Assembly (NCBI GenBank): GCA_965261025.1
Contig: OZ253438.1
Coordinates: 1,020,001 to 1,052,000, forward strand
From: Chlamydiales bacterium
GTDB lineage: Bacteria; Chlamydiota; Chlamydiia; Chlamydiales; SM23-39
Direction: 5' to 3'
DNA: 32,000 nucleotides
Part shown: positions 3,188 to 25,691 of the stretch, one piece after another
How the letters are laid out: every line of letters begins with the position of its first letter
How positions within the stretch are numbered: the stretch's first letter is position 1
Notes under the pieces: model-generated
What the model was told of the DNA's origin: nothing
What the model saw: only the letters and a program-made list of their open reading frames with translations
Databases searched by the model: none
Position numbers and translations under genes: made by a program

Positions 3188-4315
3188 TTAAAGAAAGAGA
3201 GGAAAATGCGGTTTTTTGGTCCTCTTTCCAATTCCATATCGAATACGATACTCCGCTAAAGCATTGGCTGCAGCTTGCGTAGACATACGATTTTTTTCTG
3301 CTATCTCATAAATACCTAAAAGATTTTCATAAATCTTTTCTACCTTGTCTCTAGGTCTTTTCGGATGATAACCCTCTTCTTCTAGTTCTGCCGATACATT
3401 CAAAAGTCCCCCTGCATTCACTACAAAGTCGGGTGCATACAAAATTCCCCTCAGTTGCAAAAGGTCTGCATGCTCCTCCTTTTCCAGCTGATTATTGGCT
3501 CCCCCTACAATTGCCTTGCAGGCAAATTTCGTCAGGGTCCGATCATGAATCACTTGTCCCCTTGCACAAGGAGAAAGTACATCACATTCCACCTGTAGGA
3601 TCTCTTCTGCAGAGACTACCGAAGCTCCATATTTACCGGCAAGAGCTCTTGCTCTATTTTCATTAACATCACTTACAATCAGATCTGCTCCTGCCCAAAA
3701 AAGATACCCCAAAAGAGCTCCTCCCACACTTCCCAAACCCTGTATGGCTACCGTCTTTCCTTCCAAAGAATCCGTTTTATAAAGCTTTTGTACGGCAGAC
3801 TGAATCCCTTTAAAGACCCCCCTAGCAGTAAAAACCCCAGGATCGCCGCTTCCCTTATCTCCAGGAAGGCCTACTACGTAGTTAGTCTTGCTTCGAATTA
3901 TCTCTACATCTTTCGTGGTACACCCCATATCCTCTGCGCAAATATAAAGCCCTTCCAAAGACTCTACTGCTTCTGCAAAAGCTAGTAAAAGCTCTTCTTT
4001 ATTTTCTGCATTGGGATTTGCTATGATGACACTCTTTCCTCCTCCAAAACCTACTTCGGCTACAGCTGATTTATAAGTCATCCCCTTAGCTAAGCAAAGT
4101 ACATCTTTTAAAGCCTCTTCAAAGCTCCCATAAGGAAGGATCCTAGTCCCCCCTAAAGCAACCCCTAGGCTAGTGCTGTGTATCGCAATAATCGCTTGTA
4201 ATCCCACTGAAGAATCTGTTACCTTCAAAACTTTTTCGTAACCAAAAACAGATAACTCCTCCATTTTCAAGGATCCCCTCTGTAAAAAGGTACTCTCTTG
4301 CCTTAGCGTACTCAT
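3188..4315 (-). CDS. Glu/Leu/Phe/Val-family amino-acid dehydrogenase (leucine dehydrogenase-like)
   Basis: Catalytic-Lys block GFGGGKSVI, Rossmann motif GLGSVGGAL and GGANNQL; the length of about 360-375 aa fits LeuDH/ValDH/PheDH. The start is ambiguous: both ATG 4315 (GAGGG 7 nt upstream) and ATG 4264 (MEELSVF..., GAGGGGA upstream) have SD-like sequences. Confidence 0.85.
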   Translation of the reverse strand: MSTLRQESTFLQRGSLKMEELSVFGYEKVLKVTDSSVGLQAIIAIHSTSLGVALGGTRILPYGSFEEALKDVLCLAKGMTYKSAVAEVGFGGGKSVIIANPNAENKEELLLAFAEAVESLEGLYICAEDMGCTTKDVEIIRSKTNYVVGLPGDKGSGDPGVFTARGVFKGIQSAVQKLYKTDSLEGKTVAIQGLGSVGGALLGYLFWAGADLIVSDVNENRARALAGKYGASVVSAEEILQVECDVLSPCARGQVIHDRTLTKFACKAIVGGANNQLEKEEHADLLQLRGILYAPDFVVNAGGLLNVSAELEEEGYHPKRPRDKVEKIYENLLGIYEIAEKNRMSTQAAANALAEYRIRYGIGKRTKKPHFPLFL

Positions 4316-4385
4316 GGATCAACCCTCTTTTAAAAAATTAAGTGACTATACCTTAAGTAAAAACCTTAGGTAAGTTTCTTTTATA

Positions 4386-4403
4386 CCCCTCGCAAATGAG
4401 GGG
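4386..4403. other. Perfect 6-bp stem / 6-nt loop hairpin (CCCCTC GCAAAT GAGGGG) in the divergent intergenic region
   Basis: The inverted repeat was read directly. It lies about 70 nt upstream of the dehydrogenase start on the minus strand. Confidence 0.3.
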
Positions 4404-4603
4404 AAATTTTAACAAAATCTTTACTTAGAAAACAAGCTATTCTCTTTTTTAAAAAATCCACCTCGTTTTTATTTTCCCCTTCTTGTTTTAAATGTGTTCG
4501 CTATGCTAAAAGCTTAGGCTACTACTTTAGAAAGGCTGAGGACTAAATAGACTCAGTACATAGTTCTTTTTTAGCAAGCTTTTCAGCATGAGGTTCGGAC
4601 TAG

Positions 4604-5320
4604 ATGACTAAAACGAAAATAGATAGTGCACTAAAGAAAAATTTACTCGTTTTTTTGCAAAAACAAAAAAGCACAGACCTCCTAAGCAGTTACCTATTTT
4701 ATATAGAGAAAAAATTTCATTTAAAACCTGTTTTATTCCCTAAAGAGAAAATTATTTACCAAAGTTTAGACTCTTTAGTACAAAAACTGGAAAAAGAAGG
4801 GAAGCTTTGCAGGGAAGTAGAAATAAAAATTCAATTTGGACAACAAAGCGTAAATGAAAAAACTACAAAGATTTATATTTGCCCTTTTACGGGAAAGGTC
4901 TTTGGAGATAACACTCATCCGAATCCTCAAGATGCTATATATGACTGGGTTTCCCGTTGCCCTGAAAACACAGAAAGGGTAGGCGGGCTTAAGGCAAAAC
5001 GGTTCCTAGTTTCTGAAGATCCAGAAATCATCAAAAACTATTATACCAAAAGAAAAGATCCCATTACAAAGGTAGTTTTCTCTTCTGTCATTTCTGGAAA
5101 GCTCTTTAACAGCAAAGAGGCCGTTGTAGAGGACTTTATAGAAAATCATGTGAAAAAACTTTCTTTACAAGAAGTGCAAAATCAAAACCGCTTTCAAATA
5201 GAAGAAACTTTTTTAAGTTTTATAAGAGAACAGGTTACAGAGACAAAGATCTCTCGATTTGTTGAAGAACTTTCCCAAGAGGAAGACTTTGAGCCTTATT
5301 TGCAGAAATGGCTAAAGTAG
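4604..5320 (+). CDS. Hypothetical protein (238 aa), no family recognised
   Basis: Long ORF in the co-directional gene run. Its 3' end overlaps the tsaE start by 13 nt, suggesting translational coupling. No motif identified apart from two isolated Cys-Pro dipeptides (ICPFTG, SRCPEN). Confidence 0.6.
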   Translation: MTKTKIDSALKKNLLVFLQKQKSTDLLSSYLFYIEKKFHLKPVLFPKEKIIYQSLDSLVQKLEKEGKLCREVEIKIQFGQQSVNEKTTKIYICPFTGKVFGDNTHPNPQDAIYDWVSRCPENTERVGGLKAKRFLVSEDPEIIKNYYTKRKDPITKVVFSSVISGKLFNSKEAVVEDFIENHVKKLSLQEVQNQNRFQIEETFLSFIREQVTETKISRFVEELSQEEDFEPYLQKWLK

Positions 5321-5772
5321 AAAGAGAACCTCCTAAGGAAGGAAAGTATTTTTTTTCTTCCTATGAAGAAGTAAAAAATTGGGCCGCAGGGTTTGTGTCT
5401 CTTCTTAGAAAAAATACCGTTGTCGCCTTGCATGGAAACCTCGGGGCGGGAAAAACCTCTTTCGTAAAGGCCTGCGCTCCTTTTCTGGGAATAGCTCCTT
5501 CCTTAGTAACCAGCCCGACGTTCTCTTATCTTCACGTTTATGAAGGAGATTTTTTCCTATATCATTTTGATTTGTACCGCATCTTCTCTTTAGAGGATTT
5601 TCTACATTTAGGATTTGAAGAATATTTTACTAAAACAGGTATTTGTCTTATTGAATGGCCTGAAAAAATAGCCTCTATTTTACCTAAAGAAACGCTGCAT
5701 TTACACTGGGATTTTGCTAATCTTGGAAGAATGGTAACCTTTAAGAAGGAGCTTTCCCTTTGCCTTCAATAG
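5308..5772 (+). CDS. tsaE: tRNA threonylcarbamoyladenosine (t6A) biosynthesis ATPase TsaE (YjeE)
   Basis: P-loop GNLGAGKTSFVK followed by SPTFSY..Y......HFDLYR and IEWPE, the canonical TsaE layout. Size is 154 aa. Confidence 0.85.
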   Translation: MAKVEREPPKEGKYFFSSYEEVKNWAAGFVSLLRKNTVVALHGNLGAGKTSFVKACAPFLGIAPSLVTSPTFSYLHVYEGDFFLYHFDLYRIFSLEDFLHLGFEEYFTKTGICLIEWPEKIASILPKETLHLHWDFANLGRMVTFKKELSLCLQ

Positions 5773-6732: not shown

Positions 6733-8580
6733 ATGTCAGCAAAGACCGAAGCTGCTAGTTCAGTTACCCCAAAAAGTGTTGTTTTTTTCGCTAAAAAAAA
6801 AGAGGATCAACCCCTTGAGTCTACAAAAAAAGTCATGCCATTGGCTATGGATGCTTTAAGTCAACAGCAAAATACCTCTGCCCCGTCTAGCAAAATCTAT
6901 GAAAAATCTACTCAAACTCAGACTCTTCTTGAAAAAGAAGTTTTTATCTTCAAGACCAGCACAAGTTATGGAAGCTTTTTCGATGCTACAGGAAAAAATC
7001 AGGGAGCCATACGGTATCCCGACGGAAAAACCTATATAGGATCTATTAGAAATAGCTCAGAGGCTCACGGTTGGGGAACCTTAATACTCGAAGATGGAAC
7101 ACAATGCCGAGGCCTTTTTGAAAAGGACCTATTACCAAAAGGCACCCTTGTCTATCCTGATTCTTCCATTTATAGAGGATCTATTAAGAATAACTCAAAA
7201 GCCCACGGCTGGGGGACCCTAGTTTTGGAGGATGGAACACAATGCCAAGGCCTTTTTGAAGAAGGCCTATTACCAAAAGGCACTATCATCTATCCCGATT
7301 TTATAGTTTATGAAGGCGCTATTCAAAATAATAAAGCATGTGGTATGGGAACCTTGATTCTGGAAGATGGAACGAGATGTGAAAGCGTTTTTGATAACGG
7401 AAAAGCGGGAGAGTGTACCATTAGCTATCCTGACGGAACTGTTTACGAGGGAACCGTGGATGAAAGTTTCCAACCCCATGGAAAAGGAACTTTCTTCTTC
7501 GAAGATTCTACTAGGTGTGAAGGCGTTTTTGATAACGGAAAAGCAGGAGAGTGTACCATCCAATACCCCGATGAAATGGTTTATAAAGGAACTATCAAGG
7601 AAAATTTCGAACCTCATGGGAAAGGGGCTTTTATCTTTAAAAACGGGGTTTCCCATGAAGGAGAAATAGAAAATGGAGTCCTGAAGGGAAAAGGGGTATT
7701 TCGTAATGAAGCAGGTGTTTCTATCTCGGGCAGATGGGTTCAAAACGGCTTTATCGCAGATGATTCTTTTTTAAGAATAAACAACCCCGTATTTCTTAGT
7801 AGTCTGCTAAACGAAACCCTCTTTCCTCGAGGTCTAAATGCTTTGGGTATTTTTTGTAATTACTACGAAGAAAGAAACCTCTATCCAGAGCTTACCCGTT
7901 TTTTTAAAGAAACACTCAGAATTAATAACCTTCCTCAAGAAAAATTAGTAGAAGAGATTTTGACAGGCTTAAATAAAGAACAAACTTCTGACTCTTATTT
8001 ACTTCCTCTTAGCAGTAAAGAACACCAGATGCTATTAGAAATTGTATCAAAAAAATCTGTTGTTATTTTCAAAATATACAACTCTGGAGAAGGAGTAGAC
8101 CATCATGCAAAAAAACCTGTTAAGGAAGGCTTAGAGCCTCCAATCTATGATCACTATCAGACTATGCTGCAAATTCAAGTTCCTAAAAAGCATGTTACAA
8201 AGCGTCTTATTAAAAATATCCTGAATGTATTGAGTAGTACAGAAAAAGCTTACAGCCTTTTTTTAGAGCTTCCGGAAGTCTGTATATTAAAGCAAGAAGC
8301 CCCGATAATTTGGCAAAAAGAGCAGAAAGGCTCTAACTGTACCTTAAGAAGCCTACTGGTTTTTTTGAAACATAAGCTAGGTAGCGCAAATTATAACGAA
8401 ATGAAAATAAATCTTCTTAGTGACTGCGAAAAGGCTATAAAAGAAGGCTCTGATGAATTTACAAGATCATTTTTACCCGTGCTCGTAGCAAAAAGGCTCA
8501 AAAGGCAAGAAAAATTCAGGGATAAAATAGCCTCATCTCCCCAAAACGAAGATTCTACCATCAAAAACAGCAAAATTTAG
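6733..8580 (+). CDS. MORN-repeat protein (615 aa) with a conserved C-terminal His/Asn/Cys (CE-clan-like) domain; candidate effector
   Basis: Low-complexity N-terminus, then about five 46-aa double-MORN units (Y.G......HGWGT....DG....G.F..G...KG). A domain of about 260 aa follows and is shared with the 9294..10613 paralog. It contains YLLPLSSKEHQMLLEI...VIFKIYNSGEG and WQKEQKGSNCTLR. Confidence 0.85.
   Translation: MSAKTEAASSVTPKSVVFFAKKKEDQPLESTKKVMPLAMDALSQQQNTSAPSSKIYEKSTQTQTLLEKEVFIFKTSTSYGSFFDATGKNQGAIRYPDGKTYIGSIRNSSEAHGWGTLILEDGTQCRGLFEKDLLPKGTLVYPDSSIYRGSIKNNSKAHGWGTLVLEDGTQCQGLFEEGLLPKGTIIYPDFIVYEGAIQNNKACGMGTLILEDGTRCESVFDNGKAGECTISYPDGTVYEGTVDESFQPHGKGTFFFEDSTRCEGVFDNGKAGECTIQYPDEMVYKGTIKENFEPHGKGAFIFKNGVSHEGEIENGVLKGKGVFRNEAGVSISGRWVQNGFIADDSFLRINNPVFLSSLLNETLFPRGLNALGIFCNYYEERNLYPELTRFFKETLRINNLPQEKLVEEILTGLNKEQTSDSYLLPLSSKEHQMLLEIVSKKSVVIFKIYNSGEGVDHHAKKPVKEGLEPPIYDHYQTMLQIQVPKKHVTKRLIKNILNVLSSTEKAYSLFLELPEVCILKQEAPIIWQKEQKGSNCTLRSLLVFLKHKLGSANYNEMKINLLSDCEKAIKEGSDEFTRSFLPVLVAKRLKRQEKFRDKIASSPQNEDSTIKNSKI
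7015..7743 (+). repeat. In-frame tandem repeat, period about 138 nt (46 aa = two MORN motifs), about 5 units
   Basis: Units begin at about residues 95, 141, 187, 232 and 278 (YPDGKTYIGSI / YPDSSIYRGSI / YPDFIVYEGAI / YPDGTVYEGTV / YPDEMVYKGTI). Neighbouring units share long nucleotide identities, for example ggaacacaatgcc.aggcctttttgaa and gcgtttttgataacggaaaagc.ggagagtgtaccat. Confidence 0.85.
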
Positions 8581-20748: not shown

Positions 20749-20802
20749 GAAAAACTTCTCAGGAAATCTCTTTTTGCATAAAACAGAGAGAGAGGGGTGA
20801 AT

Positions 20803-21639
20803 ATGCGGTTTCTCACTAGATTTATAGCGCTTGTTCTTTTTGCTATCTCTGGGTTTTGGTGCTGGGAAAATCTACCCGAGGTCAGGTCTTTAGTACATGA
20901 TCTTCTCAGCTTAGGCAAGTTTCAGACGCTAGAGGTAAGACATAGTGCTGAAATGATCATGCACAAGCACCAAAAGTCGCTTTTGACTGATGATAACCAC
21001 ACTTTTTTAGAGCCTACCTTAAAATTTTATCCCTATCTTCTGATGGAGGTAAAGTATACCAAACCAACAGGAAGAACCGGAGAAGGGATTCTTCTATGGA
21101 GTTTAGTAGATGGCGAAATGGTTATTAATACCCGATCTTGGGAAAAGACTCATGGATTTTTAGATTGTATTGACTCAGGAGCTGATTTAAATGACTTTAA
21201 GATTATTAATGCCCTTTCTCAAAAAGGGGGCATTTTAGACAGAGAGGGTCTCTCTCAACTTTTGGGAGAAAATAATGAAAAATTAGACCTTTGGCTAGAG
21301 AGCTGCCGAAAAAAAAGCTTAATTGTACAGACGGGGAACTTCTTTAGGCTTCACTTACAAAATCCAAAATTACAAGCAATTCCGGAAACCAAGCTAGATC
21401 ATTGGCTGGTTACTAAATCGGCTAAGTCCGCTATTCGGGTTCCTAAAAAATATAGGGCTTCCCAAATTGAAACTATTGCTAAGGCTGCTTTTGGAAAGGA
21501 CTTTGCGATTCGAAAAAAGATTGAAGTGTTTCTTCCCGTATATAGCATTATAGTACAAAACCCTGATGGATCTCAGATGACTACCTACTGGAATGCTTTA
21601 AACGGACAAAAAGTGGAAAAACCCTACCATCTAGAGTAG
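20803..21639 (+). CDS. Hypothetical protein with an N-terminal transmembrane/signal-anchor segment
   Basis: Long ORF in the co-directional run. AGAGGGG SD precedes ATG 20803, and the GTG at 20797 lies inside that SD. Hydrophobic FIALVLFAISGFWCW. No family recognised. Confidence 0.6.
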   Translation: MRFLTRFIALVLFAISGFWCWENLPEVRSLVHDLLSLGKFQTLEVRHSAEMIMHKHQKSLLTDDNHTFLEPTLKFYPYLLMEVKYTKPTGRTGEGILLWSLVDGEMVINTRSWEKTHGFLDCIDSGADLNDFKIINALSQKGGILDREGLSQLLGENNEKLDLWLESCRKKSLIVQTGNFFRLHLQNPKLQAIPETKLDHWLVTKSAKSAIRVPKKYRASQIETIAKAAFGKDFAIRKKIEVFLPVYSIIVQNPDGSQMTTYWNALNGQKVEKPYHLE

Positions 21640-21860
21640 TGCCTTTTTTTTCTCAAATTTAAACGGAAAAAACCCCTTACCCCTTTATTTATCGAAGCCC
21701 TGTTCAATTCATCCTACAAGCTTGAAGGATAGGTGCTCTTTACTCTTATTATTCATGATAGCAACCAAGGGCTTCTTCAAAATTTCCCGCTATAGCTCGA
21801 TTTTACCAATATTTGCTCTAAATCAAAGAACTCCGTACACTATGGGCCGTTTTATATCCT

Positions 21861-21950
21861 GGAAAGATGGCTGAGTGGCTGAAGGCACGTCCCTGCTAAG
21901 GACGCATACCTGATTATAGGGTATCGAGGGTTCGAATCCCTCTCTTTCCG
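21861..21950 (+). tRNA. tRNA-Ser (anticodon GCU), long variable arm, CCA not encoded
   Basis: Cloverleaf folded by hand. Acceptor GGAAAGA/TCTTTCC; anticodon stem CGTCC/GGACG with loop CTGCTAA (anticodon GCT); variable arm ATACC...GGTAT; T arm GAGGG-TTCGAAT-CCCTC; discriminator G. It aligns well with E. coli tRNA-Ser as I remember it. Confidence 0.92.
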
Positions 21951-22023
21951 TCCTTTCCTTCCTAAAAAACCCGTGACTTAAGCTCCCTTTTTTTTCTATA
22001 CTCCAAAGAAATATGGGGTGTCT

Positions 22024-22407
22024 ATGTTCAGAAATACCTGGCTTGCGGCTACAAAAATATTGATTTGGATCTTATTTATCTCCTGGTCTTCCTTATTGCT
22101 TCATCTAGTTTTGAAAGGATTTTCCCCTTGGATTTTTTTCAGTATAGATTTTTTTACTCTCTCTGTGCTTTTTATCCTCTCCCTATTGCTTTGTTTCAAA
22201 CCCTCTAAACTGCTTTTCTCTTTTACTTTGGGTTTTATTTTAGCTGACTTATTTCTTCATTTTATTAGTTTTACACAAGGTTATATCTTTCTATCTCAAA
22301 AAGGCGCTCCTCTTTATCCATTAATGCTTCCTCTTTTTTTCCTTATTTATAAACTCGCATTGCTTTATGTTGCTTATAAAGCATATAAAACTTGCCCTCC
22401 TGCTTAA
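22024..22407 (+). CDS. Small polytopic membrane protein (about 127 aa), hypothetical
   Basis: About four hydrophobic segments. It ends 3 nt before the dnaB start. The start could be GTG 22018 or ATG 22024. Confidence 0.5.
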   Translation: MFRNTWLAATKILIWILFISWSSLLLHLVLKGFSPWIFFSIDFFTLSVLFILSLLLCFKPSKLLFSFTLGFILADLFLHFISFTQGYIFLSQKGAPLYPLMLPLFFLIYKLALLYVAYKAYKTCPPA

Positions 22408-22410
22408 GCT

Positions 22411-25308
22411 ATGAATAAAAAAGAAAAAAAAGTTCGTTTTGCGCCTCATTCTAAAGAGTCAGAGATGATGGTTTTAGGTTCTATGCTCACAAGCATAGGA
22501 AATCTAAACATAGCTGTAGATCTTCTTCTACCTTCTGATTTTTACTATACAGAGCACCAAACTATTTTTGACATCCTGAAAGGGCTTTATCACCAAGATA
22601 AACCTGCAGATATCCATATCGTTTCAGAAATCCTTCGCTCCCAAGAGAAACTAGAAGAAGTAGGAGGAGTTTCTTATCTAACGCTATTAGCTCAATATGC
22701 AGGTACCTCTGCCTATATGGAAGAGTATGCAAAAATGGTGAAGGAAAAATCTCTGCTTAGAAAAATGATTGAAGCTTCACAAGATATCGAAAGAAAAGCC
22801 TTCAGTGGTAAAGAAGAAGCTTCTTCTCTTCTAGATGAAGCGCAAGCTCATTTTTTTCATATCTCTCAAACGGCTAACTGTGATAATTCTCTACTGTTAT
22901 CTGATATTTTATCAGGCGCAAAATCAAAGGAACACCTTCCTTACCTAAAACTTTTAGAGGAAAGACAAAAGACCTATCTAGAAAAAGGAGCCGATGCTAC
23001 CAAAACCGTGGGTCTGCCTTCTCGATTTTTAGATGTGGATAAGATGATTCATGGGTTTTCTCCTTCTAACTTGATGATTTTAGCAGCAAGGCCTGCTATG
23101 GGAAAGTGTGTAACAGGGGATACCTTAATTTTAGATCCTAAAACAGGCCTTCTTCATCCCATAAAAGAGTTAGTCGAAAAAGAAGAAGCCACTATCCTTT
23201 CTTTCACCCAAAAAGGGGATTTTGAAATAAGAAAGCCTTCTGCCTTTTTAGCAGATGGGATAAAACCGACTTTCGTCATCAAAACAGCTTCAGGAAAAAC
23301 TATAGAAGCCACTGCTACCCATCCTTTTCTAACTCCTTTAGGATGGAAAGCGGTAAAAGATTTGCGAGAAGGAGAAAAAATAGCCTCACCCAGATCTCTT
23401 CCCTATTTTGGAAAAGCAGAACTTGCCAAAGAAGAGATTAAGATGGCAGCCTTTTTAATAGCACAACCTTCTTTCTTAAAAGGATTTTCTTTTTCTTTGG
23501 GGAAAAAGGCTCTTTCTACTGACTTCTACGAAACAGCAAAAGCTTTTTCTTATGAGGTAGAGCAAAGAAAAGAAAAGGCTTTTTTGAAGGAGAAAAAAAC
23601 CACTTGTACAAAAGAGCCCTTTCTCTCTCCGATCTTTTCTTACTACAAAAAAGAAAGAAAACTTCCCCCTTCGTTTTTTGAATTAAAAAAATCGCTTCTA
23701 GCTCTTTTTCTTAGCCGTTTTTTTTCTGCCCATCTTTCTCTAGAAGTAGATTTTGCCCAAAAAAAGATCTTACTTGATTTGGACAATAAGCCCTTTTTAA
23801 AACAGATACAACATCTTCTCTTGCGTTTTGGTATTCTGAGCCTAATTTCTTTGAAAGCCTTAAAAATGGGTTTCAGGCCGCAGTATCAATTGATAATTGA
23901 GGAAGAAGCTTCCTTTGCTCTATTCTTTCTGGAAATCTCTCTCTTGGGAAAAAACCCTACTTTCCCTATAAAACCTCCCAAATTGGAAGAAATTTTCTTT
24001 GAGCCTATTATTGCTCTTTCTCCGACTGGTAATAAAGAGGTTTACGATCTTTGTGTAGAAACCACCCATAACTTTATAGCGGCTGATCTGATCGTACATA
24101 ACACCGCTTTACTTCTGAATTTTGCAGAAAATGTCTGTTTTAAAAATGATGTCCCTGTAGGAATTTTTTCTTTAGAAATGGATGCACAACAAATCATCCA
24201 TAGGATTGTCTGCTCCCAATCGGGGGTAGAATCAGATAAAATCCTTTCTGGTTCTCTAAATGGTATGGAATATCAGTCAGTGGTTACTGCCGTGCGAAAA
24301 ATGCAAAAGCATACCATGCTCATAGATGATCAGCCAGGCCTGAAGATCACTGACTTAAGAGCTAGAGCTAGAAGAATGAAAGAAACTCATGATATTGGCT
24401 TTTTACTCATTGACTATTTACAACTTCTTTCCGGATCAGGAAATAATCGCTCTATGGAAAGTAGACAAATGGAAGTGTCTGAAATCTCGCGTCTTTTGAA
24501 GACTTTGGCAAGAGAACTCAATATCCCCGTCTTAGTAGCTGCGCAGCTTTCTAGAAAAGTGGAAGAAAGGCAAGGCCATAGGCCCCAAATGAGTGATTTA
24601 CGCGAATCTGGATGCCTTAATAAAGATGCTCTGATACAAGATGCTCAAACAAATCAAACCTACTCCATTGAAGAACTGGCTTTAAGAAAAACTCAAACTC
24701 CCTTTTTTGTTCACGCAGTAGATGATTCTTGCACTTTAGGAGAACATAAGCTTGTCAAAGCCTTTTATTCAGGAATAAAGCAGGTATATGAGCTAAAAAC
24801 AGTTTCTGGAAAAGTAATCCGTGCTAGTGCAAACCACCCTTTTAGGACTAAAAGAGGATGGGTTCGTCTAGACGAGCTAAAAGAAAATGAACCCCTTTTA
24901 GCTCTGCAAGAAGCTTTCCCTTCTTCTTCAAATGCTTTAGTACAAGAAAAAATTTCTACCAAAACAAAGCTTTTCTGGGATCCTCTTCTTTCTCTGGAAA
25001 AACTAGGAGAGGAAAAAGTATACGATGTCACAGTAGAAGGAGTACATAACTTTGCCACAAACGGTCTTATTGTCCATAACAGCCTAGAACAAGATGCTGA
25101 TCTCATCATGTTTTTGTTGAGAAGAGATTACTATAATCCTCAAGACAATCCAGGCCTGGCAGAGTTAATCATTGGCAAAAACCGTCATGGAGGAACGGGT
25201 ACCGTAAATCTTTTATTTAGAAAAGAACTCGGTCAATTTAAAAACTATATCCCCTTAAAAGAAGGCGAGGTTTTTGAAAATGAAGCGGCTTTTGATCACT
25301 TTTCCTGA
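22411..25308 (+). CDS. dnaB: Replicative DNA helicase DnaB precursor containing two inteins (965 codons; predicted spliced product 477 aa)
   Basis: Exteins carry the DnaB N-terminal domain (SKESEMMVLGSML...) and a Walker A split as ARPAMGK|...|TALLLNFAENV. Also present are FSLEM, IDYLQLL, EVSEISRLLKTLARELNIPVLVAAQLSR, and DLRESG|...|SLEQDADLIMFL. Confidence 0.95.
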   Translation: MNKKEKKVRFAPHSKESEMMVLGSMLTSIGNLNIAVDLLLPSDFYYTEHQTIFDILKGLYHQDKPADIHIVSEILRSQEKLEEVGGVSYLTLLAQYAGTSAYMEEYAKMVKEKSLLRKMIEASQDIERKAFSGKEEASSLLDEAQAHFFHISQTANCDNSLLLSDILSGAKSKEHLPYLKLLEERQKTYLEKGADATKTVGLPSRFLDVDKMIHGFSPSNLMILAARPAMGKCVTGDTLILDPKTGLLHPIKELVEKEEATILSFTQKGDFEIRKPSAFLADGIKPTFVIKTASGKTIEATATHPFLTPLGWKAVKDLREGEKIASPRSLPYFGKAELAKEEIKMAAFLIAQPSFLKGFSFSLGKKALSTDFYETAKAFSYEVEQRKEKAFLKEKKTTCTKEPFLSPIFSYYKKERKLPPSFFELKKSLLALFLSRFFSAHLSLEVDFAQKKILLDLDNKPFLKQIQHLLLRFGILSLISLKALKMGFRPQYQLIIEEEASFALFFLEISLLGKNPTFPIKPPKLEEIFFEPIIALSPTGNKEVYDLCVETTHNFIAADLIVHNTALLLNFAENVCFKNDVPVGIFSLEMDAQQIIHRIVCSQSGVESDKILSGSLNGMEYQSVVTAVRKMQKHTMLIDDQPGLKITDLRARARRMKETHDIGFLLIDYLQLLSGSGNNRSMESRQMEVSEISRLLKTLARELNIPVLVAAQLSRKVEERQGHRPQMSDLRESGCLNKDALIQDAQTNQTYSIEELALRKTQTPFFVHAVDDSCTLGEHKLVKAFYSGIKQVYELKTVSGKVIRASANHPFRTKRGWVRLDELKENEPLLALQEAFPSSSNALVQEKISTKTKLFWDPLLSLEKLGEEKVYDVTVEGVHNFATNGLIVHNSLEQDADLIMFLLRRDYYNPQDNPGLAELIIGKNRHGGTGTVNLLFRKELGQFKNYIPLKEGEVFENEAAFDHFS
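23107..24102 (+). mobile_element. Intein 1 (332 aa) inserted in the DnaB P-loop (GK|T), with a degenerate LAGLIDADG-type endonuclease scaffold
   Basis: Starts CVTGDTLIL (block A). Block B is IEATATHPF, block F is VYDLCVETTHNFIA, and it ends DLIVHN followed by +1 Thr. The central region has LAGLIDADG-like relics (MAAFLIAQPSF, FLSRFFSAHLS) and FLKQIQHLLLRFGILS. Removing it restores ARPAMGKTALLLN. Confidence 0.88.
24613..25080 (+). mobile_element. Intein 2 (156 aa), a natural mini-intein at the Ssp-DnaB-type insertion site (RESG|S)
   Basis: Starts CLNKDALI. Block B is IRASANHPF, then GWVRLDELKENE, and block F/G is VYDVTVEGVHNFATNGLIVHN followed by +1 SLEQD. It closely parallels the Synechocystis DnaB intein as I recall it (IKATANHRF, GWKRLDEL, VFDLTVPGPHNFVANDIIVHN|SIEQD). 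There is no endonuclease domain. Confidence 0.9.
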
Positions 25309-25691
25309 AACAGGTTTTTTTTTATCTCAGGAAAATATTCATAAACAGTGTAACCCAGATCTGGGAAAATAAGAAAAGAGTTCAAAGCAGAGCCGTTTAA
25401 GACCCTGAACATAGGGAAAAAAGGAGAAGCCTCTAAAAAAGCCCGAAATAAAAATCCTACTACCCGAGCCATTTTTTCTATTTTACTCCCCTTTTGAGAG
25501 AGGGTCCCAATAGAAAGAGCGCAATCAACAAAGGCACAAAAACCCTGCACATAGGGAAGAGGAAAGTAACTTATCAGCCTAAAAGTGTTCCATACCGGAA
25601 AGTCTTCTTTGGTAATAGCACCATTATCGGAAAAATCCCCTGCCCCCCTATAGTCTATATAAAAACCAAAAGGGCGTAAAAAAGTATCCAT
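25296..25691 (-). CDS. Hypothetical protein (131 aa)
   Basis: It is the only ORF filling the gap between dnaB and the AT-rich tract. GGAGA lies about 10 nt upstream of the ATG. Its 3' end overlaps the dnaB stop convergently by 13 nt. No family recognised, so it could be spurious. Confidence 0.4.
   Translation of the reverse strand: MDTFLRPFGFYIDYRGAGDFSDNGAITKEDFPVWNTFRLISYFPLPYVQGFCAFVDCALSIGTLSQKGSKIEKMARVVGFLFRAFLEASPFFPMFRVLNGSALNSFLIFPDLGYTVYEYFPEIKKNLFQEK

Follow-up and report, generated by a model that had tools for sequence, protein, structure and literature searches.

A dnaB gene with two inteins

The window analysed here, a stretch of 32,000 nucleotides from a Chlamydiales bacterium (assembly GCA_965261025.1, contig OZ253438.1, positions 1,020,001 to 1,052,000 of the forward strand), contains a gene for the replicative DNA helicase DnaB that is interrupted by two inteins. 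A single open reading frame (ORF) in the ORF list, 22411..25308 on the plus strand, encodes the whole precursor of 965 amino acids (aa), which matches Pfam DnaB, Pfam DnaB_C and TIGR00665, and removal of both inteins leaves a DnaB of 477 aa, the same length as that of intein-less chlamydial orthologs. Intein 1 splits the P-loop and carries the relic of a homing endonuclease, and intein 2 lies in the DNA-binding H4 motif. The parts of the gene are listed below in window coordinates; a slash within a motif marks a splice junction.

22411..25308, plus strand: dnaB ORF, 965-aa precursor (ORF list, Pfam DnaB/DnaB_C, TIGR00665, spliced length)
22411..23106, plus strand: N-extein, aa 1-232, whose last residues, ...ARPAMGK, supply the first half of Walker A (from alignment with chlamydial DnaBs that lack inteins)
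23107..24102, plus strand: intein 1, 332 aa, class 1, at DnaB site b (P-loop, GK/T) (family models, ortholog alignment, HMMER)
23107..23430, plus strand: N-terminal splicing lobe of intein 1, aa 1-108 (Cys1, block B T69-A-T-H72; matches 6FRG and 1MI8)
23431..23979, plus strand: homing-endonuclease relic of intein 1, aa 109-291 (alignments, LAGLIDADG_3, AlphaFold2, Foldseek)
23428..23472, plus strand: relic of LAGLIDADG helix 1, block C, aa 108-122, EEIKMAAFLIAQPS, with Gln120-Pro121 in place of Asp/Glu-Gly
23689..23739, plus strand: relic of LAGLIDADG helix 2, block E, aa 195-211, SLLALFLSRFFSAHLS, with His209-Leu210 in place of Asp-Gly
23980..24102, plus strand: C-terminal splicing lobe of intein 1, aa 292-332 (block F Asp314, Cys316, His321; block G His331-Asn332)
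24103..24612, plus strand: middle extein, precursor aa 565-734, from Thr+1 (which supplies the T of GKT) to ...SDLRESG in the H4 motif
24613..25080, plus strand: intein 2, 156-aa mini-intein without homing endonuclease, at DnaB site a (H4 motif) (Pfam Intein_splicing, 2.4e-19)
25081..25308, plus strand: C-extein, SLEQDADL... to the stop codon (alignment with orthologs, intein boundaries)

The translation of 23107-24102 is exactly 332 aa long and runs CVTGDTLIL...AADLIVHN, with ...ARPAMGK before it and TALLLNF after it. An earlier note on this DNA had proposed an intein at the Walker A GK/T of DnaB, and both the Hint-domain matches and the precise absence of the segment from orthologs bear this out. 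The comparison with Pfam that it had suggested, and one with other family models, gave matches throughout: Pfam Intein_splicing (PF14890) at E = 2.9e-21, LAGLIDADG_3 at E = 1.5e-6, TIGR01445 (intein_Nterm) at E = 2.9e-11 and TIGR01443 (intein_Cterm) at E = 1.3e-4. The splicing lobes match the PDB sequences of the crystallised DnaB mini-inteins 6FRG, 1MI8 and 4O1R with E values of ~1e-18 to 1e-19. A contig search with the precursor returned nine loci, L001 to L009, among which L001, L005 and L009 were placed in the chlamydial group by the identity of their DnaB exteins (61-91% to the window's). The intein 1 segment is exactly absent from L002-L009, and the six chlamydial dnaB orthologs L004-L009 read ARPAMGK-TA.ALN across the junction. 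Excision of the 332 aa restores GKT at ARPAMGK-TALLLNF, as had been claimed; the mature helicase, however, is 477 aa after two splicings, not 633 aa.

All the residues expected of a splicing-competent intein were found, which agrees with the claim that the splicing blocks are intact. The string ATHPF occupies aa 70-74 of intein 1, block F contains D314 and T320-H-N-F323, and block G ends in H331-N332; further inside lie LIAQPS (117-122), FFSAHLS (205-211) and HLLLRFGI (236-243). The nucleophiles Cys1 and Thr+1 are present and are kept in L001 and in P0067 (PIS03257.1), a chlamydial DnaB with an intein at the same site, and H72, D314, H331 and N332 are invariant or nearly so in a 38-sequence intein alignment. 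All splicing residues of intein 1 are conserved in its L001 version. The triplet that marks class 3 inteins occupies block positions B:12, F:4 and G:5. These hallmarks are absent from intein 1, which has Asp314 instead of a block F cysteine, Phe74 instead of Trp at the second residue past the block B His, and Val330 instead of Thr ahead of the final His-Asn. Two papers describe the class 3 intein by a WCT triplet spread over blocks B, F and G and by a catalytic block F cysteine (PMC6195587; PMC2807308).

On this evidence the 965-aa precursor would be made with its ATP-binding loop split. An N-S acyl shift at Cys1, assisted by block B T69 and H72, would give a thioester, which the P-loop Thr+1 would attack to form a branched intermediate; cyclisation of Asn332, aided by His331 and His321, would free the intein, and an O-N shift would leave an intact GKT. 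With the departure of intein 2 from the H4 motif a normal 477-aa DnaB would result. Nucleotide binding should be impossible before splicing, since Walker A is split by 332 residues. Kelley et al. likewise presumed that a P-loop intein blocks ATP binding and cited RadA as the precedent (PMC6195587).

Intein 2, which the earlier note did not mention, comprises precursor aa 735-890 with the junctions ...SDLRESG/CLNKDALIQ...NGLIVHN/SLEQDADL and is shared with L001. It appears to be an endonuclease-deleted ortholog of the 431-aa intein of L003 and of the partial intein of L002. The splicing residues of both inteins are conserved in the window and in L001. An antisense ORF of 114 aa (24765-25109, minus strand) lies mostly within intein 2 and extends 29 nt into the C-extein; it is probably a by-product of coding-strand composition and not a gene.

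The comparison of the window with L001 indicates what selection has acted on. Synonymous sites are saturated (proportion of synonymous differences, pS, 0.63-0.91) and dS is saturated or undefined, so that dN/dS is unreliable, and nonsynonymous divergence (dN), identity, Fisher tests and neutral simulations were used instead. The exteins are 91% identical overall with dN of 0.03-0.07: the N-extein shows 87% aa identity and a dN of 0.07, the middle extein 95% and 0.028 (for a bin of aa 565-740, which includes the first six residues of intein 2). The N-terminal splicing lobe of intein 1 is 81% identical with a dN of 0.115, and dN reaches 0.21 in intein 2 and 0.23 in the C-terminal splicing lobe of intein 1. 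We infer that intein 1 does splice, because its catalytic residues are conserved, the exteins are under strong purifying selection and DnaB is essential. The opposite idea, that the insertion does not splice and that this dnaB is a decaying copy whose function is supplied by another gene, draws on the fact that only 32 kb of the genome is covered, which leaves room for a second dnaB. It is hardly credible in view of the 965-codon frame, intact in the window and also in L001 despite the saturated synonymous sites, the 91% extein identity with its low dN, the conserved splicing residues of both inteins, and the position of the gene in a conserved housekeeping neighbourhood.

Decay and retention of the endonuclease domain

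The central part of intein 1 was aligned within a set of 34 inteins and, separately, with its closest relatives, including P0067 with its intact homing endonuclease. In block C the intact relatives read LAYLIADGN (P0067), WAYFIAEGH (P0001) and LAHLLGDGY (L003), compared with AAFLIAQPS in the window and GAYFLSQPS in L001. In block E they read LFSCDGT (P0067), LFSCDGS (P0001) and LWAADGN (L003), compared with FFSAHLS in the window and FFSSHLS in L001. All four replacements, by which the acid-Gly pairs became Q-P and H-L, are common to the window and L001. The alignment thus confirms that both dodecapeptides lack their catalytic acids, as had been proposed, with Gln120 and His209 at the acid positions and Pro121 and Leu210 at those of the glycines; no intact acidic residue came to light in either motif. 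Furthermore, the window and L001 share two deletions of ~75 aa each (~150 aa in total) when compared with P0067, P0117 and P0109: the first half-domain of the endonuclease has lost one of these segments, and the other is missing between the endonuclease core and block F. The set of DNA-contacting segments seen in intact relatives is accordingly incomplete. The LAGLIDADG_3 score is 28.8 bits, from the second half of the domain only, versus 66-80 bits in intact relatives.

The fold of the domain is predicted to have survived these losses. The AlphaFold2 model of intein 1, built from a 38-sequence alignment, has a mean predicted local distance difference test score (pLDDT) of 90 and a predicted template modelling score (pTM) of 0.91. 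It shows the relic as two units of a helix and a beta-hairpin, in line with the alpha-beta-beta-alpha-beta-beta-alpha fold of LAGLIDADG enzymes, and its helices 108-119 and 195-208 stop precisely at Gln120 and His209. Confidence is lower in the central block (intein residues ~121-180), where pLDDT means over 10 residues range from 56 to 90. The best Foldseek matches in the PDB are inteins that contain homing endonucleases, namely Tli/Pho VMA (7QSU, 7QSS, 7QST), PI-PfuI (1DQ3) and PI-SceI (1VDE), with E = 1e-18 to 1e-11 and query-normalised TM-scores of 0.62-0.69 for the top matches. I-DmoI was also matched, and mini-inteins cover the Hint part only. The HLLLRFGI helix is invariant across the intein family. 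The predicted fold, the Foldseek matches and the LAGLIDADG_3 match together support the retention of the LAGLIDADG scaffold stated in the earlier note, and the endonuclease of intein 1 can be described as apparently dead but folded like one.

Could it nevertheless cut DNA through non-canonical residues and keep intein 1 mobile? The LAGLIDADG fold persists, as does the Pfam match to the second half of the domain, and homing does seem to occur in the phylum, where inteins with intact endonucleases are present at both DnaB sites in related chlamydiae and presence/absence polymorphism is seen at 94% extein identity. We nonetheless regard an active enzyme as highly unlikely: the metal-binding acids and the helix-packing glycines are replaced in both the window and L001, ~150 aa present in the closest intact relative are gone, and intact relatives score more than twice as high with Pfam. 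The composition is also ameliorated, and the pattern in the window and L001 fits vertical descent.

Several observations suggest that the loss of activity is old. A compositional sign of recent acquisition was sought in GC content, GC content at third codon positions (GC3) and codon adaptation, and none was found, both inteins being equal to host genes in all three. Since the same four substitutions occur in L001, inactivation would predate the split between the window and L001, and since these lesions are shared across saturated synonymous divergence, it would be old and the intein fixed. This supports the description of intein 1 as fixed and non-homing in the earlier note.

The relic has not decayed freely. 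It is 55% identical between the window and L001 (dN 0.35, 7 gap columns) and has changed more than the splicing lobes (Fisher odds ratio 2.85, p = 1.6e-5). In neutral simulations identity did not exceed 36% and 0-0.05% of frames stayed open, even when dS was set to half its lowest estimate; the relic, with 55% identity and a frame open in both genomes, is therefore not neutral. It is under relaxed purifying selection and is kept in frame as a folded domain, most likely because an unfolded or truncated insert would compromise the splicing of an essential protein.

The same selection signal could be taken to mean that the endonuclease-derived domain was exapted, either for binding DNA or the replisome and thereby making splicing conditional, or for assisting the split Hint fold as a chaperone within the same molecule. 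This idea gains from the 55% identity and open frame against at most 36% under neutrality, from the confident predicted fold (weaker at ~121-180), from the invariance of the HLLLRFGI helix across the family, and from the conditional splicing of P-loop inteins documented elsewhere (PMC6195587). We consider exaptation unlikely. A folding constraint alone accounts for the selection signal; the relic evolves ~3x faster than the splicing lobes, with 7 gap columns between the window and L001; and it has lost stretches that intact relatives possess, among them the one immediately preceding block F.

Similar relics are, moreover, common, which points to a generic stage of decay. An exhaustive HMMER search with intein 1 gave 3,840 matches at E <= 1e-3, and the insertion sites were surveyed in the best 150 of these. 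Among them, 67 other DnaBs carry Cys1 inteins in the context ARP..GK/C...HN/T, and further matches are inserted at GK/S or GK/T of other P-loop nucleoside triphosphatases (NTPases). By pattern-based, approximate counts restricted to the endonuclease region, 30 of the 67 site-b inteins have both LAGLIDADG motifs, 8 have one and 29 have neither; at lengths of 200-360 aa, both motifs are missing from 18 of 21. Partial decay of the endonuclease is thus nothing unusual for an intein in the DnaB P-loop.

Conditional splicing may be considered apart from exaptation. Cys316 (window 24052-24054) lies two residues after Asp314 in the string VYDLCVE; it is kept in L001 and is Ser in P0067. On a beta-strand it should point the same way as Asp314, towards the active site, and it might pair with Cys1 in a disulfide. 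The splicing of intein 1 would then be conditional and would couple replication to the developmental or redox state of the chlamydial cell, possibly through a Cys1-Cys316 disulfide, and the retained relic might offer a surface for sensing or binding. Such coupling is speculative and, in our estimate, quite improbable; if it existed, intein 1 would be an independently evolved class 1 analogue of the mycobacterial DnaBi1 in an obligate intracellular bacterium.

We favour, with a probability of about 0.88, the reading that intein 1 is a class 1 intein fixed at dnaB site b, that it splices, that its endonuclease is dead and that it is inherited vertically. It would no longer be able to home, because the catalytic acids, the glycines and ~150 aa are lost. 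Several points weigh against this reading. Splicing and the inactivity of the endonuclease are both deduced from sequence, and the assignment of the catalytic positions relies on the alignment with intact homologs and on the helix ends of the model, the Foldseek comparison contributing scores only. Only two genomes carry this version of the intein, and with their synonymous sites saturated dN/dS is rough and the inactivation undatable. Purifying selection on the relic also fits a retained role other than that of a nuclease, and with 32 kb covered a second, intein-free dnaB may lie elsewhere in the genome.

Chlamydial dnaB genes and the surroundings of the locus

Considered together, the chlamydial dnaB genes differ at both insertion sites.

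Window and L001: site b, intein of 332 aa and 339 aa, respectively, with decayed endonuclease; site a, 156-aa mini-intein
L002 and L003: site b empty; site a, full-size intein with intact motifs, 431 aa long in L003 and truncated at the end of the contig in L002
L004-L009: sites b and a empty
P0067 (PIS03257.1): site b, 492-aa intein with intact YLIADG and LFSCDG; site a empty
P0088 (partial sequence, ending after the endonuclease core): site b, intein with both motifs present as far as sequenced

The exteins of P0067 are 63-74% identical to the chlamydial set versus 36-39% to non-chlamydial DnaBs, and the N-extein of P0088 is 80% identical to that of P0067. The P0067 intein (aa 233-724) is likely the active-type counterpart of the decayed intein 1. 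At site a, the genes with inteins lie at 4001-6079 in L002 and 3998-6688 in L003, and the intein-less gene of L005 at 3974-5437; the intein motifs read LLGDG in block C and WATDGN (L002) or WAADGN (L003) in block E. L002 and L005 have exteins that are 94% identical, one with the intein and the other without it, so that gain or loss in this branch is evidently recent, and within Chlamydiota this polymorphism hints at recent homing or at exact loss.

The set thus covers all stages in the life cycle of an intein, spread over two sites in the same gene: empty sites in L004-L009, inteins whose endonuclease is intact (at site b in PIS03257.1, at site a in L003 and apparently in L002), an intein with an apparently dead but folded endonuclease (intein 1, in the window and L001), and one without endonuclease (intein 2, in the same two genomes). 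The clade offers a convenient natural series for homing-endonuclease decay.

The window dnaB is the chromosomal housekeeping replicative helicase gene of an environmental Chlamydiota bacterium, which bears out the phylum given in the earlier note. The gene order is S49 protease, polA, coaE, rho, tRNA-Ser(GCU), dnaB, mnmG/gidA, lipoate ligase (lplA) and sdhB/sdhA, and the locus is assigned to the chromosomal housekeeping category because the neighbours include polA, rho, mnmG and lplA. We take polA...rho...dnaB-gidA-lplA to be the conserved chlamydial chromosomal order. Genes farther upstream encode a DUF2709 protein (4604-5320), a 615-aa MORN-repeat protein (6733-8580) and a TLC-family ATP/ADP translocase (12271-13857), all on the plus strand, and they fit the obligate intracellular life of chlamydiae.

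Smaller features surround dnaB. The 94-nt tRNA-Ser (anticodon GCU) lies at 21860-21953 on the plus strand according to ARAGORN and Rfam, and the Rfam scan of the window found no RNA family beyond it. Two ORFs flank it upstream of dnaB (20797-21639 and 22018-22407, plus strand), and neither matches Pfam. The 129-aa ORF apparently encodes a small, very hydrophobic membrane protein, and an ORF of matching size stands immediately before dnaB in L001 (3602-3994). Downstream, a 131-aa ORF on the minus strand (25296-25691), without a Pfam match, overlaps the stop region of dnaB by 13 nt. It may be a real conserved hypothetical gene, because L001 carries an ORF of similar size in the same place and orientation (6910-7347, minus strand).

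Relation to known inteins

DnaB is the commonest bacterial intein host, with 317 inteins in ten clades; sites a and c lie in motif H4 and site b in the P-loop, and DnaBs with inteins at sites b and a together occur in Actinobacteria and Cyanobacteria (Novikova et al. 2016, PMC4760082). Chlamydiae are not among the ten host clades of that 2016 survey (PMC4760082). Our literature search found no paper describing DnaB inteins in Chlamydiota; PMC3423634 treats inteins only in amoeba-infecting giant viruses. Intein-bearing chlamydial DnaBs are, however, already present in public databases under the annotation replicative DNA helicase, PIS03257.1 being an example, so that the remark in the earlier note that none was known in the phylum holds for the literature and not for the databases.

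The closest full-length relative of intein 1 outside the window/L001 pair, among the matches listed, is P0067 from Chlamydiae bacterium CG10_big_fil_rev_8_21_14_0_10_42_34. It belongs to the same phylum, occupies the same site and is 40% identical over 331 aligned residues. The two share the strings CVTGDT, PSAF.ADG.KPTF, VETTHNF and HLLLRFGI, of which VETTHNF is shared specifically. The P0067 intein differs in its 492 aa, both motifs intact, and in the absence of a site-a intein, in contrast to the 332 aa, destroyed motifs and two ~75-aa deletions of intein 1; it also has Ser where the window and L001 have Cys316.

More distant relatives are spread over several hosts. Homologous inteins that are 25-33% identical to intein 1 by BLASTP, namely P0001, P0002, P0006, P0008 and P0010, as well as P0003, P0009, P0011, P0013 and others, are inserted in the Walker A of DPANN-archaeal proteins (...GSGK/C...HN/SY) and in dCTP deaminase (...CLGK/C...HN/STYARCG); the latter is not known to be a P-loop protein. 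The GK/S or GK/T context shared by unrelated hosts hints that target-site similarity guides ectopic spread. An ectopic origin of intein 1 itself from another host protein was considered when a word-index search favoured inteins of a DPANN ATPase P-loop, of dCTP deaminase and of DnaB site a. It was rejected: the top of the exhaustive HMMER search is mostly DnaB site b, with a chlamydial intein nearest, and the word-index result reflects sampling bias.

Among solved structures, the best sequence matches are the DnaB mini-inteins of Synechocystis sp. PCC 6803 and Nostoc punctiforme (1MI8, 4O1R, 6FRG), which belong to the same Hint subfamily. Unlike intein 1 they occupy site a and not the P-loop, and the crystallised forms have the endonuclease removed; presumably they derive from the same site as intein 2, with flanks of the RESG/C...HN/SIEQD type. 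The endonuclease-containing inteins 7QSU, 7QSS, 7QST, 1DQ3 and 1VDE have the same architecture of a Hint domain with a nested LAGLIDADG domain, but they are only 11-18% identical to intein 1, reside in other host proteins and have a larger endonuclease. PI-SceI and PI-PfuI, at least, have their acidic residues intact and are active as nucleases.

DnaBi1 of Mycobacterium smegmatis (Msm) shares with intein 1 the host protein, the P-loop site and the presence of a second intein in the H4 motif (Kelley et al. 2018, PMC6195587; Woods et al. 2020, PMC7360933). It is a class 3 mini-intein without a homing endonuclease, with a catalytic block F Cys118 and a Cys48-Cys118 disulfide switch, and it responds to oxidants, zinc and reactive chlorine (PMC6195587). 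The parallel drawn in the earlier note is accordingly sound for the site and for the redox and zinc response, but the mycobacterial intein differs in class, in the absence of an endonuclease and in lineage (PMC6195587). Intein 1 is a class 1 intein with an endonuclease relic and Asp314 at block F, and the regulatory residues of DnaBi1 have no counterpart in it. Because class and regulatory residues differ, redox or zinc control cannot be transferred to intein 1.

The nearest fit is with the catalogued class 1 site-b DnaB inteins (PMC4760082), which have the same insertion point (GK/T or GK/S), the same Cys1 block set, a nested LAGLIDADG domain and the architecture of sites b and a together. 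In them, as in intein 1, the Thr or Ser at +1 doubles as the Mg-coordinating residue of the P-loop. Intein 1 differs from the catalogued members in its chlamydial host, in an identity to non-chlamydial members of only ~25-40% and in the decay of its endonuclease. Site, class, double-intein architecture and endonuclease decay have all been documented before, and such decay is frequent; only the host phylum and the life-cycle series in a few chlamydial genomes are new. Annotators should expect a 965-aa dnaB in this lineage to be genuine and not a fusion or misassembly. The recorded hosts of DnaB inteins are extended to Chlamydiota, an obligate intracellular phylum with reduced genomes, and apart from the phylum that harbours it, intein 1 is an unremarkable member of the most frequent kind of bacterial intein.

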